Positions 30,460-61,365 of a DNA stretch of 64,000 nucleotides are shown piece after piece. Origin of the DNA: Zootoca vivipara. Lineage: Eukaryota. The position numbers were made by a program, and so were the translations under genes. Each line of letters starts with the position of its first letter. Within the stretch, counting starts at the first letter, position 1. Location: NCBI RefSeq assembly GCF_963506605.1, contig NC_083285.1, forward strand, positions 1,674,001 through 1,738,000. Reading direction: 5' to 3'. The notes beneath the pieces are model-generated. The model had not been told where the DNA came from. It worked only from the letters and a program-made list of their open reading frames with translations, and did no database searches.

Positions 30460-31369
30460 TAAACTGATTTCTCTTATGTGTAAAGTATCTTAAATTAAGT
30501 TTCTTTGTTCCGCAACTGAGATGAAACATTGTAAAAGGAATTTTGAAGCAGTTTGTGAGGAAAGTAAAGCAATAGTCACTCCAAGTTATTGCTCAATAAA
30601 TCCACAACTGAAAGGGGAAAAATCAGTCCTACTAGCAACAACATGGTAAGTGGCGTCCATACTTTGTGGGTCCTCATGCAAAATACATTTTACATGCACA
30701 CAGCCCATTTAGTCTGATTATACATCAGCATCTAATCAATACCTTCTGAATGGAGATGAAACATTATTTCAATATCTTCTAGTAAGACAAAGAACATATC
30801 TTCAGAATGCATAAGAATTATACATGCATGTTTTTTAGACATTATAGTATATATTGTATATTATACACTTTGCCCATGTTCAGAGGCGATTTAAAAGCTT
30901 TGCCCAAGATTCTAAGACACACATAGTATGCAGTGCTACATTAAAAGAAAGAGAACAAATGGCATCCCTACCTCTCCAGATACACCTCACAGATGTACAA
31001 GCCCTTGCTCTCTCTCTGGGTGTCTTTGGAGAATATACAAGACTTTAATGTCTGCCCGTAAAGCGCCATTTTTTATATAAATATTTTTTATTAAAGGTTT
31101 CTTGAATTACAAAGGTGTGTGCAGTGTCTCTCATATTTTAACATGTATCATTTTTGCAAATCAGTTTCATTTGTTAAGACACTAAAGTGTCATTTTGTGC
31201 TTCCCACGAGACTGGAGGCAGGCATCCTTGGGAAAGGGGGGGGGGGGAAGACGGGCAAATCTGCCTCAGGGGCAAATATTAAAATACACCCCCCCCTACA
31301 CACAAAGCCCCTCACCCTCTTCTCGCACCTTGGCACAAAAGGAGGCGCACCTTCCCTCCCTATCGCACT

Positions 31370-32830
31370 TTGGGGTTAACTCGGGGGGGGGGGGAGGGAT
31401 TCAGCTTCGCACTCGGTTTGGGCGCCACCTGCACACCTGGGGAGCAGCCCCTCGTTTCCCTCAGCCATGATGGGGAGGGGGGAGGGGGGTCCGAAGGCCC
31501 CTCTTGGGCCAAGACCGTGACCGGGCTGAGAGGGGGCGGGGTCTGTGTCCGGCTTCTCCCCCCCCCCACCCGAGCGCAGGCGGAGCGCGAGGCTCCCTCC
31601 CCTTAAAGGCAGGTAGCGGCCCTCGCTGCTCGCCCCTCCCCTCCCAGGTTCCCTGGCGGGCGGGGCCGAAGCGGCCGTTGAAGGAGGCAGAGAGGAAACG
31701 CGGGAAAAGGGGGGTGGCTTAACCCTCTCGCTGCCGCGGCGGAGCCTTCTGTGCTGAGAGAGCGAGCCGGGCCGGCCAGACGCCCGGTGCATTGTGGGAC
31801 TGGCTGGCTGGGCTGGGGGGGCGAGGAGGTGGAGGGGAGTCCCGTTCGCGGGCGAGCGAGGAGCAGGCAGGGAGACGCGGTAAGAGGCCTGGGCGGGCGG
31901 ACTTAAAGGGGAACGCGGCCCCCTTCCCGCAGCCGCCACCAAGCTGGAGGGGCTGGGCAGGAAGAAAAGGCCTCTCCGCGGGCTTGAGGGGCGCGGCGGC
32001 GGCCAAGGCAGAGAGGGCCGGGCGGGCAGGCGGCGGAGAAGGATGGCTTCGGGCCGCTGTGGCCCAGAGCGGAGTCTGCGGGGAAGGCGGAGGAGGGGAT
32101 CTGCGGGCGCCAGGGCGGGGAAGGGGTTAACTTTACACCCGCCGACATTTTTCCTTGAGAGGAGAAAGAGGGAGCGCTCGCTGGCCCGCCGGCCGGCCGC
32201 GTGGAGCCCGAGTCCCCTCCCTTCCCTTCGGAGAAGCCGCCCCGAGGCCCCTCAGCCCGGCCGCCTTCGCTTCCCGCCCGCGTCGCGCTTCCCCGCCCCC
32301 CCCAAATGCCTTTAAATTCACCCGGCGAAAGGGTTAAACCTTTTCCTGAAGCGCCTCGGCGCGCGCACACGATGCCTGCCTGCCCTCCCTCCCTCCCTCC
32401 CACCCACCGCGGCCCCTTCCCTTTTAACTTCTTTTAACTGCCCCATAGATGTGTAGGGCGCATGGCGGCGGTGGCCCTTCCCCGAGGATTCCCTGTTTCT
32501 GTTCGCCAAAGGGCAGCGAGGGAGGCGGGAACCCTGCCGCCGCCTCTGCACAACAGCCAGTCGCTAAGGGCCCGGCGGGCATTACGGGAGGGTGGGCGAG
32601 CGGGTGGGCGACGTGAAGGTATGCGGGAGCCGGGGCTTCCTGTGCTGCAGGGCAGAGTCGCCCTCTCCGCTCCCCGGGCCAGGCATGGTTGTGAGCCCTT
32701 TCTGCACGTGGCTAGGTTTCCTTCCTGATAGGCGTGTCGGCCTAAAATGTATGTCCCTGCGCAGAATCTCAGAAGGGGGGTAGAGTTGGAAGGGACCGCG
32801 GGGGTCACCTGGCCCAAGGCCTTGCAGTGC
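31370..32830 (+). promoter_or_regulatory. SEPHS1: SEPHS1 CpG island / promoter
   Basis: Very GC- and CpG-rich, with GC boxes (ggggcgggg 31532, gggcgggg 31658). Lies about 2.4 kb upstream of the first coding exon. Confidence 0.88.
31730..31879 (+). other. SEPHS1: Probable non-coding exon 1 of SEPHS1 (start approximate)
   Basis: Good donor GCG|gtaaga at 31880 inside the CpG island. The first coding exon starts at an acceptor (35207), so an upstream exon is required. Confidence 0.55.
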
Positions 32831-32908
32831 AGGAGTCTCTTGCTCGACGTGGGGCTTGAACCCACGACCCTCAGATTGAGTCTCGTGCTCTACCAACTGT
32901 GCTCGTTT
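32772..32908 (-). mobile_element. tRNA-Lys-headed, CR1-tailed SINE (Squam2-like)
   Basis: Minus strand gagcacagttggtagagcacgagactcaatctgagggtcgtgggttcaagccccacg resembles tRNA-Lys(CTT) with a damaged anticodon loop, followed by the CR1 3' end (ggtcccttccaactcta). Confidence 0.78.
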
Positions 32909-33291
32909 GCCAGATCTACGGTGAAGCAAAGGTTAAATTCTCTGAGCAGTGTTGATTTTTGAACTAATGGAAACTGGGAGCTTCGTTTTTTCCGGACTGA
33001 CTTAATGCAGAACTTTAACTCTGTGTTTTCAAAGTTACAAAACAAAATTGCAAGAAATTGTCCTAAAGTGGTGGATAAAGTATGGTATTGCAAACACTAT
33101 AGTTGTTTGGAACACCTCTGCGCTCTTCTTTCCTCATTTCAGAAAACAGAAAAAAACATGTTCAGTCGAGATTCAGAATTTTGCATCTTTCCATTATATA
33201 GGAAGCTGCATTAAGTACTCCCAACTCTTTGCGTGGCTTATAAGGCTTATAGTTTTCCATGGGGAAAATAGGTGTCTGTTTCTCATTCAAA

Positions 33292-33607
33292 ATCACTGAG
33301 CCTAGGGCTTGCTGATCAGAAGGTCGGCGGTTCGAATCCCTGTGACGGGGTGAGCTCCCGTTGCTTGGTCCCAGCTCCTGCCAACCTAGCAGTTCGAAAG
33401 CATGTCAAAATGCAAGTAGATAAATAGGAACCGCTACAGCGGGAAGGTAAACGGTGTTTCCATGTGCTGCTCTGGTTTGCCAGAAGCAGCTTTGTCATGC
33501 TGGCCACATGACCGGAAGCTATACGCCGGCTCCCTCGGCCAATAATGCGAGATGAGCGCGCAACCCCAGAGTCGGTCACGACTGGACCTAATGGTCAGGG
33601 GTCCCTT
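33292..33607 (+). mobile_element. Sauria SINE in SEPHS1 intron 1
   Basis: Nearly identical to the 9885 copy. TSD ttctcattcaaa. Confidence 0.9.
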
Positions 33608-34579
33608 TTCTCATTCAAACTAGGATGGGTGGACTTGGTTTGCATTGTTGGACTCCCAACAACCCCAACTGGTTTGGCCAGGGAGGATGGAAGTTTGTTG
33701 CCCAACAACATCTGGAGGGAACAGAATGAGGAGAAAGCTCCTGTTTTGTTTGTGGGTTAAAGTTCAGTTCTTAACAGGAAACGTAGAGGAATCCATAACT
33801 TTTTACTGTCTATTAAATACAGTGGGCACAATTCCATTGAAATTGATTTGTTGATGTTACTGTTTCATTTTCGTAGTGTCATAGGTGCTTAACTTTGCTT
33901 GGGACTGCTTCAGACATAATGAACTCAGCTACAGATTTTCACTAACAGAAATTCCCTTTATGAAGTTTACAGCGGGTTAAACGAATCACTTTTTTGATGT
34001 GTCTAGATCCAGCCAATGTTTATCTTCTCAACTGCATCCCACACAAATGTCCCATTTTTTCCTGGGTACCCAGAGAGCGCAAAATCAAAATACATGTGTC
34101 TTTTTGTTTTACGCTCTCTTGGTTCTGCACCTTTGCTGGCCACCACTTGCTACGCACATATGAGGAGGGCTACAGCTTCTGGAAGAACGGTGCCACTTCC
34201 GGAAGTATGTCACTGTGGCCCTTCTCTGTGTGGTAGCAGGCGGATGCTTAGGCAGCAATGGGGAGGGCGAGCAGGCAGCAGCAGCAGGATGGTGTGTGTG
34301 TGTGTGTGATGTCCCAATTTCTTCTTGGGAAATGTTGGAGCATATGCAACTAAGGGTGGAGCAAAGTGGGACATCTTGGGCTGAATACACAGGTCAATTT
34401 GCTATAAACATAGCTGACCTTTTAACGCCCTGGTTTTCTGTAAGCCTGTCGGAAGATCATGTACATGCTACTATTATGCACTGAATTCAGTCCAGTTGGC
34501 TCGGCGCAGCACTTCTAAACTCATGTTTGGCATGTCATTAGAGACATAAATTGAATTCAACCATGGTAAACGTTCCCTT

Positions 34580-34902
34580 AAAGTCGTCCAGTTGTGGACA
34601 ACTCTGGGGTTGCGGCACTCATCTCGCTTTATAGGCCGAGGGAGCCGGCGTTTGTCTTCAGACAGCTTCTGGGTCATGTGGCCAGCATGACTACGCCGCT
34701 TCTGGCGAACCAGAGCAGCATGCGGAAATGCCGTTTACCTTCCCGCCGGAGCGGTACCTATTTATCTACTTGCACTTGATGTGCTTTCGAACTGCTAGGT
34801 TGGCAGGAGCAGGGACCGAACAACGGGAGCTCACCCCATTACAGGGATTCGAACCGCCAACCTTCTGATCAGCAAGTTGAGACCACAGCGCCACCCGCGT
34901 CC
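34580..34902 (-). mobile_element. Sauria SINE in SEPHS1 intron 1, inverted
   Basis: 12-bp TSD aaacgttccctt (34568-34579, 34903-34914). Confidence 0.9.
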
Positions 34903-35282
34903 AAACGTTCCCTTGCCACTTGTCAAAGTGACCTAAGGAGGGTGGGTAGTTTTATATCCATCCCCTGCTACAAAACTTGCAAGAAAGTGATTATGCAGGG
35001 GCTTTATATGCAAAAATGAATGTTGCCTTTTTTAAAAAAAAAAAATGTCAAGAGCTGGTAGCCTTAGTGAAGGAGGCATCTGTTCTTGCAATGTATGGTT
35101 GCAGCTCAGATTTTTACATAGAAGGGAAAAGATATATATGAGAAACTATTCTGCATAACAAGCTGAGAAAGTCTATATTGTATTAATACTTCTTTCTTCA
35201 AACTAGGATAATTACCAGGAAAGCATACCAACAAATTTCCTGAAGAAGAGAAAAAGCTTCTGGTACTTATTGTGTGGGAATC

Positions 35283-35475
35283 ATGTCTGTCCGGGAGTCC
35301 TTTAACCCAGAAAGTTATGAACTTGACAAGAGCTTTCGGCTAACAAGATTCACTGAACTTAAAGGCACTGGCTGTAAAGTGCCTCAGGACATTTTACAGA
35401 AATTGCTTGAATCTCTACAAGAAAATCACTTCCAGGAAGATGAACAGTTTTTGGGAGCTGTTATGCCTAGATTGG
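35283..35475 (+). CDS. SEPHS1: Selenophosphate synthetase 1, coding exon 1 (exon starts at acceptor 35207)
   Basis: ATG at 35283. Translates [42 protein letters not shown]...MPRL. Donor G|gtaagc. 193 nt. Confidence 0.98.
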
Positions 35476-35997
35476 GTAAGCAGTAGTTCTTCAATGATAT
35501 TTAATGGTTGTACCATGTGTTGGAGAATACAGAAAAGTAATGTACTCTGTGTGTGTACAAGGTTTATTTCACCAACAACAAGGTTAGTTATTTCACCAAT
35601 CAAAAATGCGTGGTCAATGGTGTATTTACTGCATCTGTATAGTCGCCCCATAACAGTTGCCCCATAACAAATTTTCTGGGCTGCTCCCAATGCAAAACAA
35701 CAGTAGCAACATTAAAATACAGTACAAAAGAATGAAAATCATAACAGATTAATTAAAAAACAGAAACACAAGTAAAACTTCAAACAGAGAGGCTCAAACT
35801 GTGAAATGCAAGTTGTTTAAAGGGTTTTTACATTTATTCTTATTCTTTAAGTTTTGTATATAACTTCCCTTAGAGGTATGTAAGTGAAGGCAGAGCATAA
35901 TTTTAAAAATAAAAATAAAATCAAGACACAAACAAGAAAGAGAAACAACCCGTGTAGAAGGGCAAACAAAGGGGAGGGGGGAACCCAAAATTATATA

Positions 35998-45916: not shown

Positions 45917-47741
45917 CAGTGAGGGAAAAGTATTTGATCCCCTGCTAAATTTGCCTGTTTGCCCTTCTCTGACGAAGAAATGACCAGGTCTTAATTTAAA
46001 TGTTAGGTTTATTGTAGCTGTGAGAGACATAATAACAGGAAAACCCCCAGAAACCCAGAAGACAAAAGTCAGAAATTGATGTGCATTATAATGAGTGAAA
46101 TAAGTATTTGATCCCTTTGCAAAAGATGACTTAGTACTTGGTGGCAAAACCCTTGTTGGCAATTACAGAGGTCAGACGTTTCTTGTAGGTGGCCACCAGG
46201 TTTGCACACATCTCAGGAGGTATTTTGTCCCTCTCCTCTTTTTAGATCCTCTCCAAGTCAGTAAGATTTTGAGGCTGATGTGTACCATAGCTACTTGAAC
46301 CTTCAGCTCCCTCCACAGATTTTCAATTGGGATTAAGGTCTAGAGCGGGGTCCCCAAACTTACCTTGCCGAGGGCCGGTGCTGCCAGTGCCAGTCGCGCT
46401 GCGAGCCGGAGCACGCATCCATACGCGTGCGCACAAGCAATTTCCGGTGCACTTCCAGGTTGCTGGAACGCCGGAAATGTCTCATGCGCATGGGCCTCCT
46501 CCGGCCTGGAAGCGCACCGGAAATGACGCTTGCACATGCGCACAAGCTATTTCTGACGCTCCCGGCGACCTGGAAGTGGGCAGCCGCACCGGTAAGAGCA
46601 GGCGCCAGGGGTCGCATGAATGAGCATCGTGGGTTGCATCTGGCTCGTGGGCTTTAGTTTGGGGAACCCTGGTCTGGAGACTGTCTAGGCCACTTCAGGA
46701 CCTTAATGTGCTTCTTCCTGAGCTACTCCTTTCTTGCCTTCGCCATGTGTTTTAGGTCATTGTCATGCTCGACCCATTTTCAATGCCCTGGCTGAGGGAA
46801 GGAGGTGCTCACCCAAGATTTGACGATGCATGGTCCCGTCCATTGTCCCTTCGATGCGGTGAAGGTGTCCTGTCCCCTTAGCAGAAAAACACCCCCAAAG
46901 CATAATATGTCCCCCTACATGTTTGACGTGGGGATGGTGTTCTTGGGGTCGTAGGCAGCATTCCTTCTCCAATCACGGCGAGTTGAGTTGATGCCAAAGA
47001 GCTCGATTTTGGTCTCATCTGACCACAACACTTTCACCCAGTTGTCCTCTGGGTCATTCAGATGTGCATTGGCAAACTGAAGATGGGTCTGTACATGTGT
47101 TGTCTTGAGCAAGGGGACCTTGCGGGCTCTGCAAGATCTCAGTCCCTCACGGCGTAGTGTGTTACCAACTGTTTTCATGGTGACTATGGTCCCAGCTGCC
47201 CTGAGATCATTGACAAGTTCCCCCCGTGTAGTTCTGGGCTGCTTCATCACCGTTCTCCTGATCATTGCAACTCCACGAGATGAGATCTTGCATGGAGCCC
47301 CAGACTGAGGGAGGCTGACAGTTATTTTGTGTTTCTTCCATTTGTGAATTATTGTACCAACTGTTGTCACCTTCTCACCAAGCTGCTTGGCAATAGTCTT
47401 GTAGCCCAGTCCAGCCTTGTGCAGGTCTACAATCTTGTCCCTGACATCCTTGGACAGCTCTTTGATCATGGTCATGGTGGCAACTTTGGAATCTGCTGGA
47501 TTGATTGCTTCTGTCGACAGGTGTCTTTTGTACAGGTACCGTAATGAGCTGGGATTACAGGTAAAACATCTCCCTTACAGCAGGTGCTTCTAATCTCAGC
47601 TTGTTACATGTAGTGAAGATACCAGGTAGCCTGACATCTGGCTGGTTGATAGGGGATCAAATACTTATTTCACTCATTATAATGCACACCAATACAGTAT
47701 CTGACTTTTGTCTTCTGGGTTTCTGGGGGTTTTCCTGTTAT
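45917..47741 (-). mobile_element. Tc1-family DNA transposon (IR/DR type) with defective transposase
   Basis: TA|cagtg start. About 200-bp TIR with internal DR aagtatttgatccc (about 45928, 46102). Partial second TIR at 47652-47741. Transposase pieces [42 protein letters not shown] and SPDLNPIE, with frameshifts and a stop. Confidence 0.93.
46346..46671. mobile_element. hAT MITE inserted in the Tc1 transposase
   Basis: TIRs cggggtccccaaact / agtttggggaaccctg. 8-bp TSD gtctagag / gtctggag. Confidence 0.85.
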
Positions 47742-54636: not shown

Positions 54637-54851
54637 GAGGACTCCTTATTTGTTTACCACGTGAACAGGCAGCACGTTTCTGCGCTGAAATCAAGTCTCC
54701 AAAATATGGTGAAGGTCACCAGGCATGGATTATTGGGATTGTAGAAAAGGGCAACCGCACTGCCAGGATTATAGACAAACCTCGAATCATTGAGGTAGCA
54801 CCACAAGTGGCTACTCAGAACGTGAACCCAACGCCTGGAGCAACTTCTTAA
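54637..54851 (+). CDS. SEPHS1: SEPHS1 last coding exon
   Basis: ttcag|GA...TAA, 215 nt. (G)[70 protein letters not shown]. Exon lengths sum to 1179 nt = 392 aa plus stop. Confidence 0.98.
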
Positions 54852-58488: not shown

Positions 58489-59289
58489 GGCTAGAAAAGT
58501 TCTAACACCAGGCAGCCTGTGGCCCTCCCCAAATTGGTTGGGCTCCAGCATAGCCTGGGGTGATGGGTGTTTCAGAGACCAGTCATCAGTACTGTAAGCA
58601 AGTTTGAAAGCAGATTTGTTGTTACATGATATTAAAGTATATTAATACAAATAATGAAATTAATGGCTGATTAAGCAATCTGGCCTTTTTGCATGTGTCG
58701 GTTACCTTGTGAGATATTCTGGAGAGAAGAAAAGGCTCGGGAGTAAACCCTACGCAAGTGGAGTCCCTAAGGCGGTTGGATGGTGCCTTTTGGCAACTCC
58801 TGCAGCCAAGCTGGTGCTAGACGTCTTGCTCTGCTTTCCTTTGGACCTCATCAGAGGGGCTGAGTCTTGCCGTCTGGCCAGCCCAGGACCCCCAGACCCA
58901 CTGCCGGGGCTTGCGTCCCAGAGAGGTCACTTGGGTGCTGCTGGCGCAGCAAAAGCGGACCGGGAGGCCGGTGCTGCGATTCTCCAGTGGTTTGCCTTCC
59001 CCCTCCCGAGACAGAAGGATGCCCGCTAGTGTTGTTACGGTAATTTTGTGTTTTTATGTTGTAAACTCCCCTGCGACCTATAAGTTTAGCAAATCTTGAT
59101 AATAACCACACCAGTTGTATGTAGCTTGCCAGCACTATTCTCTAAAACGAGCAATACTTTCCCCTTGGGATGGAAATGTGAACCTTGTAAAACGTGCTGC
59201 AGTTCCTAATTCCCCCGCGGAATCTCAGGATGGGCGACTGGGGAGGGTACACCGGGGTCATCTAGTCCAACCCCTTGTTGCAAGTCATG

Positions 59290-59930
59290 ACTCGGAGCGG
59301 TTTTTTCACACGTGACGCCTTCGAACCTCTGCCCGCCTTCCCTGCCTGCCACGAAGCGCTTGCTAGTCGCGCCGGGTCCTTCCTTCCGGTGGAGAGGAGT
59401 ACGGGGGGGGGCGGCCCTCTCTCCCTCCCTCCCCCCCCGGTAGGAGGAGCCCCGCAGGGCCCGGCCTCTTCCCCGCCCTGGGCGGCGCTCCTCCGCTCCC
59501 TCAGAGACACCGAGGCAGAGGAGGAGTCCGCATTTGAGGGCGCCATGGCGGAGGCCGAGGCCGAGGGACCCAGCCGCGCCGACCCCGCCGCCTCCACCGC
59601 CTCGGTCCGGCTGCGCGCCCTGCTGCGCCACGTCCTGCCCTCCTCGCTCGGCGCCCGGCGGGCCTGCGCCTCCTCGCCGCGCCCCGTATCCTTTGGGCCG
59701 AGCGGGCAGCCGGGGAGGGAGCCGAGGCCGGCCGGCCGGGAGGAAAAGCACCTGCTCCGCATAGCTGCCAAGTTTTCCCTTTTCTCGTGAGGAAGCCTAT
59801 TCAGCATAAGGGAAAATCCCTTAAAAAAATGGATAACTTGGCAGCTATGGCTCGGCGGGCGCCGGAGGGGAGGTCTCGCCCGGCTGGGCCGGCCCGGAGG
59901 TTGCTCCTCCTCGCCCAGGTCCAGGAGCCG
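59290..59930 (+). promoter_or_regulatory. PHYH: PHYH CpG island / promoter
   Basis: CpG-rich block with GC box ccccgccc at about 59471, upstream of a perfect-Kozak ATG. Confidence 0.75.
59545..59685 (+). CDS. PHYH: Phytanoyl-CoA 2-hydroxylase, probable exon 1 (PTS2 presequence)
   Basis: gcgccATGG. Translates MAEAEAEGPSRADPAASTASVRLRALLRHVLPSSLGARRACASSPRP with PTS2-like RLx5HV. Phase-0 donor gtatccttt. PHYH follows SEPHS1 on the same strand in amniote synteny. No catalytic exons are visible in the window. Confidence 0.7.
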
Positions 59931-59937
59931 TGGGGTT

Positions 59938-60055
59938 AAATGGTAGAGCTGGAAGGGACACCCGAGGACCATCGAGTCCAGCCCCCTGCTATGCAGGACT
60001 CTTTCCCGACGGGGGACTGGAAGCCACGACGCTCAGGTCCAGAGACTCGCCTGTT
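59938..60055 (-). mobile_element. Diverged tRNA/CR1-tail SINE
   Basis: Colinear with 32772-32908 (gtagagctggaagggac...gccacgacgctcag), more degenerate. Confidence 0.55.
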
Positions 60056-61365
60056 TCTCGTGGGGTTCATTTCTCGGACAAGCTTTCTAACTCCATCTGA
60101 CCCTCATACAATCGAGAGGGTTGGAAGGGTCCCGAGAGGCATCTAGTCCAGCCCTCCTCTGCAAGGCAGGAATCTCAACTGAAGCCCCTCTCTCTCTCTC
60201 CTTCGCCTTTCTGTGCTCAATCACTTCCAGGTAGCTGCTCCCTTAACCTGCGTTTCCCTTCCGCGTCTGCAGACAAACAGAGCCATTGAAACTGGGGCTG
60301 GACACAATCTCTGGAAGACTTCTTGAGCATATTGGACAACTGCATAGCAGCAGAACTTTTTTTAAAAACCCCATATTTTCATCACATTCAAATGGATAAT
60401 GGGAAAAAGCTTCACCTGTCAAATTGCTGCTTTTCTGACACTTGTTAGAAGTGCATAAACCTCCTATGGGGAGAGGGCAGAGAAGACCTTGGTAACCGCC
60501 TCTCTCAGACATGGCTGACCATGGCTGACCTGGGACTTAATTCTATTTCCCCGACCAGGTGCCTTCTCAGGCCTCACCACTTTTTGGGTTTTGTTTGTAT
60601 ACTGATTAGAGAGCTATGTAATTCTTTCATAACTTGATGGGCCACTTGAATGGCTGTGTGTCTATCATGCAAAGCAGCCCTTTTAATTATAAATCAAATT
60701 ATCCTGTATCTAGTCAAGATTGCATATGTCTGAGCAAGGCTTGTACAGATTTTAGCCCCGGTGAAGCTGAAACTATTTAAACGTTTGAAGCATTTCAGGG
60801 GTTGGACTAGATGACCTTCAGGGTTCCTTCCAACTGTACAATTCTGTGTTTATATAATTTTATCAGTGGGTGACAAATTACTGCAAGTGTGTTTAAGCAA
60901 AATTGTGCACAGCACAAAGAATTCTGCAGGAATAGGAAAATACCTGCAGTGGCCTTTGCCCGCCCCCCCATCCTGATGATTTGGACATGTATCAATCTAA
61001 TTTCTGTTGTCTCTCCATTGTTATTCACGACTTTGCAGGGATATATTTTGACGGAAGAAACATTTCCCTATATTGCATATTAGATCTACAGCTCTGATTG
61101 CTGCTAACCTTTTTATTTATTACCATTTTTTTAACTACCAATCTTGTTTTTGACCTTTGTACCTGGTACTGTTACATAAGGTATATGTGATTATCTAATA
61201 CTTTTTCCTTGATTCTGTTCCTTCCCCTCTTCCCCACTATTACTAATGTGTTTCAAGATGAGGAACAATAGAGAAGTCTGAGCATTTTCAAGGTTTCCTG
61301 AAATTTCTTCTATTTGAATACAGACTTAGCAACTCCCTTTAATTCTGTCACTAGTTATGTGTATA

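Follow-up and report, generated by a model that had tools for sequence, protein, structure and literature searches.

Does the region around the first exon of SEPHS1 contain the means by which the coregulator Zincore might control the supply of one of its own subunits? As established from published papers, Zincore consists of QRICH1 plus SEPHS1. Its usual effect is taken here to be mainly activating, and ZNF652 to be one of its client factors. The complex with ZFP91 was reportedly described by Bianchi et al. (Science 2025, doi 10.1126/science.adv2861), the supplements of which may well settle the question; in titles and abstract starts, we found no paper on SEPHS1 autoregulation. Throughout this work we take CTTTAAR to be the ZFP91 motif and GGGTTAA, or its extended form of about CGAAAGGGTTAA, to be the site of ZNF652 and of its paralogue ZBTB47, which are indistinguishable from sequence; this consensus is said to come from Kumar et al. 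2008. Our literature search found neither a statement that ZNF652 is a Zincore client nor a tie, given in letters, of CTTTAAR to ZFP91 or of GGGTTAA to ZNF652.

According to the available parts of the sources, Zincore is a recently described coregulator needed in embryonic development, with a link of QRICH1 to a human neurodevelopmental syndrome (10.64898/2026.10.26.761783, PMC13383152), and it locks zinc-finger proteins including ZFP91 onto DNA (10.1101/2024.10.23.619601). A promoter motif (cluster-5) predicted to be functional by a model is bound by ZFP91, and is given without letters in the accessible text (PMC13017510). No description of how the Zincore level is set was found in the accessible literature, and nothing on SEPHS1 was found in the supplements of PMC13383152, PMC13017510 and PMC7398277, the last of which includes a FLAG ChIP-seq data set for ZNF652 from HepG2 cells.

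The SEPHS1 gene and the Zincore proteins

SEPHS1 is an intact, spliced gene on the plus strand of the window, i.e. the whole 64,000-nucleotide stretch of DNA that was analyzed, and its coding exons were located (Table 1). Its last exon, the one covered by the structure comparison, is identical to chain 9hjt_F over 64 residues (321-384), which together with the splicing bears out the gene identity given in the initial annotation. R330 and R371, presumably the clamp residues of SEPHS1, are kept in this alignment. A broken Tc1/mariner-like transposase frame, judged from its translation and not from a family search, is located in an intron of the gene (46915-47574, minus strand).

RNA data document the splice between exons 1 and 2: in four raw reads from X21 and a contig from X14, the sequence jumps from 31880 to 35208, and an AG acceptor precedes position 35207. 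Since contigs cannot show a transcript start, 31674 is the minimum 5' extent of exon 1; a pile-up of starts was absent in the raw-read runs, which place 27 reads in total on 31000-33250. X23 reads of opposite mate orientation at about 31660-31810 (depth 2) were too few to call antisense transcription. A known structured RNA was rejected, as Rfam gave no matches in 30500-35500.

The 5' end of the gene lies in a CpG island that was called in 300-bp windows with a GC content of at least 0.60 and a CpG o/e of at least 0.65. A high-copy repeat, seen as a pile-up of contigs from relatives, is present at the 3' edge of this island (32780-32903). The second CpG island of the window (59141-60150) contains an ORF start with the word RLxxLxxH, which we take to resemble a peroxisomal PTS2 signal and to fit the label PHYH. 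This island has no CTTTAAR, as had been claimed, and one GGGTTAA (at 59933).

Table 1. SEPHS1 gene features and predicted motif sites around its 5' end (positions within the window)
Feature	Position	Strand	Remarks
Weak ZNF652-type core GGGTTAA	31373..31379	+	upstream, just beyond the island call; presumed factor
CpG island, SEPHS1 5' end	31451..32880		GC 0.69
CTTTAAG, ZFP91-type	31602..31608	-	~65 bp before the first position covered by spliced RNA; presumed factor
SEPHS1 non-coding exon 1, minimum extent	31674..31879	+	X14 contig spans 31674-31880
CGAGAGGGTTAA, strong ZNF652-type 12-mer	31719..31730	-	in exon 1; GGGTTAA core 31719-31725
ZNF143/Staf-like site	31789..31799	-	in exon 1; putative site
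SEPHS1 intron 1 (GT...AG)	31880..35206	+	RNA splice; GT donor 31880
CTTTAAG, ZFP91-type	31902..31908	-	intron 1, 22 bp in
Weak ZNF652-type core GGGTTAA	32124..32130	+	intron 1
CTTTAAA, ZFP91-type; includes CHR variant TTTAAA	32310..32316	+	intron 1
CGAAAGGGTTAA, best ZNF652-type site	32326..32337	+	intron 1; GGGTTAA core 32331-32337
SEPHS1 exon 2	35207..35475	+	ATG at 35283
SEPHS1 last coding exon	54637..54851	+	codons R330 (54660), R371 (54783)

The partner proteins were searched for in the genome. QRICH1 is found on C2 and matches chain 9hjt_H at its N-terminus, and ZFP91 adjoins CNTF on C1; in its last zinc fingers, 69 of 70 residues agree with 9hjt_A. On C13, a gene with multiple zinc fingers that lies upstream of a PHOSPHO-family gene is presumably ZNF652, a name that we base on this synteny. 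Of the parts that the circuit would require according to the initial annotation, SEPHS1, QRICH1 and ZFP91 are thus present in the genome and occur together as chains in PDB 9HJT/9HJU, whereas ZNF652 is only probable.

Motif sites at the SEPHS1 island and in control sequences

The SEPHS1 promoter had been described as packed with motifs of Zincore-recruiting factors. The three CTTTAAR heptamers all proved to lie where, and on the strand on which, they had been placed, and the claimed GGGTTAA sites were found at 31373, 31719 (minus strand), 32124 and 32331, with two full 12-mers among them. A motif cluster is present at the 5' end of the gene, but the boundaries of exon 1 leave only two sites upstream (31373, 31602), with one in exon 1 (31719) and four in intron 1 (31902, 32124, 32310, 32326), so that most of the cluster is not upstream.

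Compared with the presumed ZNF652 consensus, the GGGTTAA sites comprise one exact 12-mer, one match at 11 of 12 positions and two core-only copies. The two strong sites (31719 and 32326) are alike at 14 of 16 nucleotides and lie 607 bp apart on opposite strands; an origin of the sites as copies of a local repeat or duplication was rejected by comparison of their sequences. CTTTAAA (32310-32316) and the best ZNF652-type site are separated by 9 bp (32317-32325), in agreement with the spacing claimed before. The island also holds nine GGGCGG boxes and one ZNF143/Staf-like site in exon 1, which is a possible second activator input independent of SEPHS1. Only two TTAA cores in the island belong to neither motif, and both lie in a 9-bp direct repeat, CTTTTAACT twice (32420-32438). 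In exon 2, the codons for Phe-Asn-Pro (35302-35308) read TTAACCC, a minus-strand GGGTTAA that is also present at the same codons in the distant vertebrate contigs L201 and L202; this probably reflects codon usage.

Both motifs were named beforehand from gene identity and were not mined from the sequence. In 5000 dinucleotide shuffles of 31350-32750, CTTTAAR was expected 0.26 times and is present three times (p 0.005), while GGGTTAA was expected 0.10 times and its four occurrences were reached in none of the shuffles. Across the 64-kb window, CTTTAAR occurs 49 times against 37 expected, a number reached by 5 of 100 shuffles. As this is barely above chance, the excess is specific to the GC-rich island. 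When 1,048 7-mers were ranked blindly, G/C-run words came out on top, GGGTTAA was fifth in an order-2 model and second in an order-3 model (p 1.5-2e-4), and CCTTTAA was eighth at order 2 and not within the top eight at order 3. GGGTTAA was not significant once corrected for the 1,048 7-mers, and the case therefore rests on motifs chosen from gene identity.

For a comparison with real islands, a YY1-like 12-mer served as an independent marker of putative promoter islands, so that background islands were picked by sequence alone. An NRF1-like pattern was dropped as a guide, since its 4,289 matches suggest repeats. From the 100 YY1-like matches listed, 16 that form close inverted pairs and four others were dropped and 80 loci were fetched, 37 of which had no central island and 11 an island shorter than 600 bp (one of these short islands, L012, contains two CTTTAAR). 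All other islands of at least 600 bp in the fetched DNA were added to the guide-centred ones, resulting in a background of 53 islands of at least 600 bp (54,850 bp) from the same genome, without the ZNF652-type 12-mer.

With both motifs summed, 42 of these 53 islands have no site, eight have one and three have two; for CTTTAAR the respective numbers are 44, seven and two, while GGGTTAA is absent from 50 and present once in three. The SEPHS1 island contains three CTTTAAR and three GGGTTAA, i.e. six sites in 1,430 bp, with 31373 excluded. For CTTTAAR, 0.29 sites would be expected (Poisson p 0.003) and none of the 53 islands has three, and for GGGTTAA the background rate gives a Poisson p of 7.5e-5; a rank test is limited by the 53 islands to p ~0.02 at best. 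All 13 islands with a GC content of at least 0.65 have at most one site, versus six at SEPHS1. The density of TTAA is 5.6 per kb in the SEPHS1 island and 1.8 in the background; however, six of its eight TTAA cores lie inside a motif, whereas 14 of 100 background cores do (Fisher p 4e-4), and the result is thus not merely a TTAA excess. Among 70 islands (that of SEPHS1, the 53 of the background and 16 selected because they carry the 12-mer), the SEPHS1 cluster is the densest. Taken together, the cluster of the two motifs at the SEPHS1 island is real, locally unusual and probably non-random.

The genome (1.44 Gb) contains 134 copies of the 12-mer CGARAGGGTTAA, which is thus rarer than its reversed control (507). 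Two pairs within 1 kb were present among the 100 of the 134 matches that were listed. One of these is a 33-bp tandem duplicate outside islands, and the other, at SEPHS1, is the sole non-tandem pair at such a distance among the matches listed. We fetched 88 other 12-mer loci, covering 89 of the 98 remaining listed matches; 16 of these loci are in islands and 72 outside, with a maximum of three sites in any. The next densest cluster, an island on C4 (L147, G000:C4:48549329), combines a perfect ZNF652-type 12-mer with two CTTTAAR. Several of the non-island 12-mers, examples of which are L096, L099, L135, L162, L179 and L189, share the upstream flank AATGCA, which suggests a repeat family that may have spread ZNF652-type 12-mers through the genome. 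One extra DNA match (L093) was discarded as low-complexity G/C sequence. The pair CTTTAAR-N0-25-ARGGGTTAA was found 175 times genome-wide versus 204 times for the reversed control; as the two motifs show no excess of pairing at up to 25 bp, a composite-element grammar for the 9-bp pair was rejected.

Comparison of the sites in relatives

In relatives C and D, which are ~95% alike, no change was listed inside the sites at 31602, 31719 and 31902, although few are expected at this distance. The CTTTAAG at 31902 was covered at high depth in both, and changes were listed beside the sites, at 31600 and 31899. This comparison was made from the listed differences, beyond which there are 64 further substitutions and 29 further gaps. 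At the weak site 32124, a T is inserted within the core in one contig of relative C, and the pair at 32310-32337 was only partially covered, by one contig at a depth of 2.5. The pieces of organism B are identical, at low depth. A metagenome scan for distant orthologues returned the vertebrate contigs L201 and L202, which extend beyond the 5' border of exon 2 by 2.1 and 1.15 kb, respectively, and end before the island, as well as a weak match (L203).

The proposed circuit and competing explanations

In the proposed circuit, zinc-finger proteins of the ZFP91 and ZNF652 families would bind the sites around SEPHS1 exon 1 and would recruit QRICH1-SEPHS1, the SEPHS1 subunit of which would lock or stabilize these factors on the DNA; more complex would then result in more SEPHS1 RNA, a predicted positive loop. 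In our judgement the predicted sites are very probably bound, and an autoregulatory loop of SEPHS1 of either sign is plausible, albeit unproven, with the balance slightly in its favour; both gradings are judgements and not computed values. That the cluster of Zincore-recruiting motifs drives positive autoregulation of SEPHS1 is proposed tentatively. Arguments against it are the blind 7-mer ranking, the genome-wide results on the 12-mer and on the motif pair, the lack of sites inside the island calls of ZFP91 and the putative ZNF652, and the altered weak site in relative C. It appears rather doubtful that exon 1 and intron 1 constitute a dedicated amniote-wide feedback module, in which two client factors would let Zincore set its own supply. 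Occupancy, recruitment of Zincore, feedback and the sign of this feedback at SEPHS1 are points that we infer from the sequence.

Binding without measurable effect is common, and the predicted sites could be bound while SEPHS1 is an ordinary target among many, driven mainly by GC-box and ZNF143-type factors and with no meaningful feedback from the SEPHS1 protein level. Such a target would be in line with the G/C-run words as the most enriched 7-mers, with the GGGCGG boxes and the ZNF143-like site, and with the presence of CTTTAAR in 9 of the 53 unrelated islands. However, the cluster is the densest of all 70 islands and is located at the gene of the shared cofactor, and we consider this explanation somewhat unlikely. 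If there is a loop, it could also be negative: ZNF652 or ZBTB47, either with CBFA2T3 or locked by Zincore, would dampen SEPHS1 from within exon 1 and intron 1, and strong and weak sites together would serve as a dose sensor. While three of the four GGGTTAA sites are indeed inside the transcribed region, the mainly activating effect of Zincore argues against a dampening role, which we regard as unlikely. In the accessible part of one source, ZNF652 is described as a transcriptional repressor (PMC8697023), which counts against the positive sign and favours the negative one. A precedent for a negative loop is provided by ZNF143, which, according to the available text, is negatively autoregulated via low-affinity sites and likewise has a cluster of stronger and weaker sites about its own first exon (PMC3936768). 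In that case, a DNA-binding factor acts on its own gene in a loop shown by experiment, whereas at SEPHS1 a non-DNA-binding cofactor is predicted, from the sequence alone, to act through client factors.

The cluster might also be a chance or lineage-specific build-up of TTAA-containing words that was picked out post hoc, as would fit the TTAA-rich island, the loss of significance upon blind correction over all words, the limited rank test and the alteration of the weak site at 32124 in a close relative. Since both motifs were fixed in advance by gene identity, two of only 134 full 12-mers in the genome are found 607 bp apart, and TTAA cores fall within a motif much more often than in the background islands, such a build-up seems quite unlikely. 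Finally, TTTAAA within 32310-32316 could be a CHR element for DREAM/MMB, in which case the cluster would reflect cell-cycle control. As far as the accessible text shows, human SEPHS1 has a conserved CHR 123 bp from the annotated start and Sephs1 is weakly bound by DREAM, but the human element has the form TTTGAA and is located upstream (PMC3287175), and it therefore differs in hexamer and position from the CHR variant of the same gene studied here, which overlaps the third CTTTAAR. Within 31301-32900, CHR-type words are restricted to positions 32311 and 32855, well inside intron 1; none of TTTGAA, TTTAAA, TAGGAA and CTTGAA occurs within ~200 bp of the start, the nearest being more than 430 bp past the exon-1 donor, and there is thus no canonical CHR near exon 1. 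Moreover, a CHR would leave GGGTTAA and two CTTTAAG unexplained, which makes this last explanation highly improbable.

The SEPHS1 circuit is accordingly presented as a testable hypothesis built from known parts and not as a demonstrated circuit. In comparison with the Zincore-ZFP91 complex of 9HJT/9HJU, it involves the same three proteins, which are near-identical where compared, and three CTTTAAR, with the cofactor's own gene as the putative target. As both the factors and the kind of circuit are known, it would be a useful addition and not a new principle. If true, a loop through SEPHS1 would tie Zincore activity to subunit supply, and a shift in SEPHS1 RNA would be expected in QRICH1 or clamp mutants. 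If the amniote-wide module were true as well, clamp variants of SEPHS1 and haploinsufficiency of QRICH1 would shift SEPHS1 transcription and thereby amplify or buffer the disease effect.

Judging from their islands, the genes of both Zincore subunits may be targets. No site was found inside the island call of ZFP91 or of the putative ZNF652, and one CTTTAAR is located just outside each. The QRICH1 island (L088, G000:C2:20562111), upstream of the first coding exon, contains one CTTTAAG ~100 bp before a YY1-like word, a number that is unremarkable given that 9 of the 53 background islands show as many. Another island (L087, G000:C2:20558215), situated 4 kb before the QRICH1 island, carries the palindromic CTTTAAAG.
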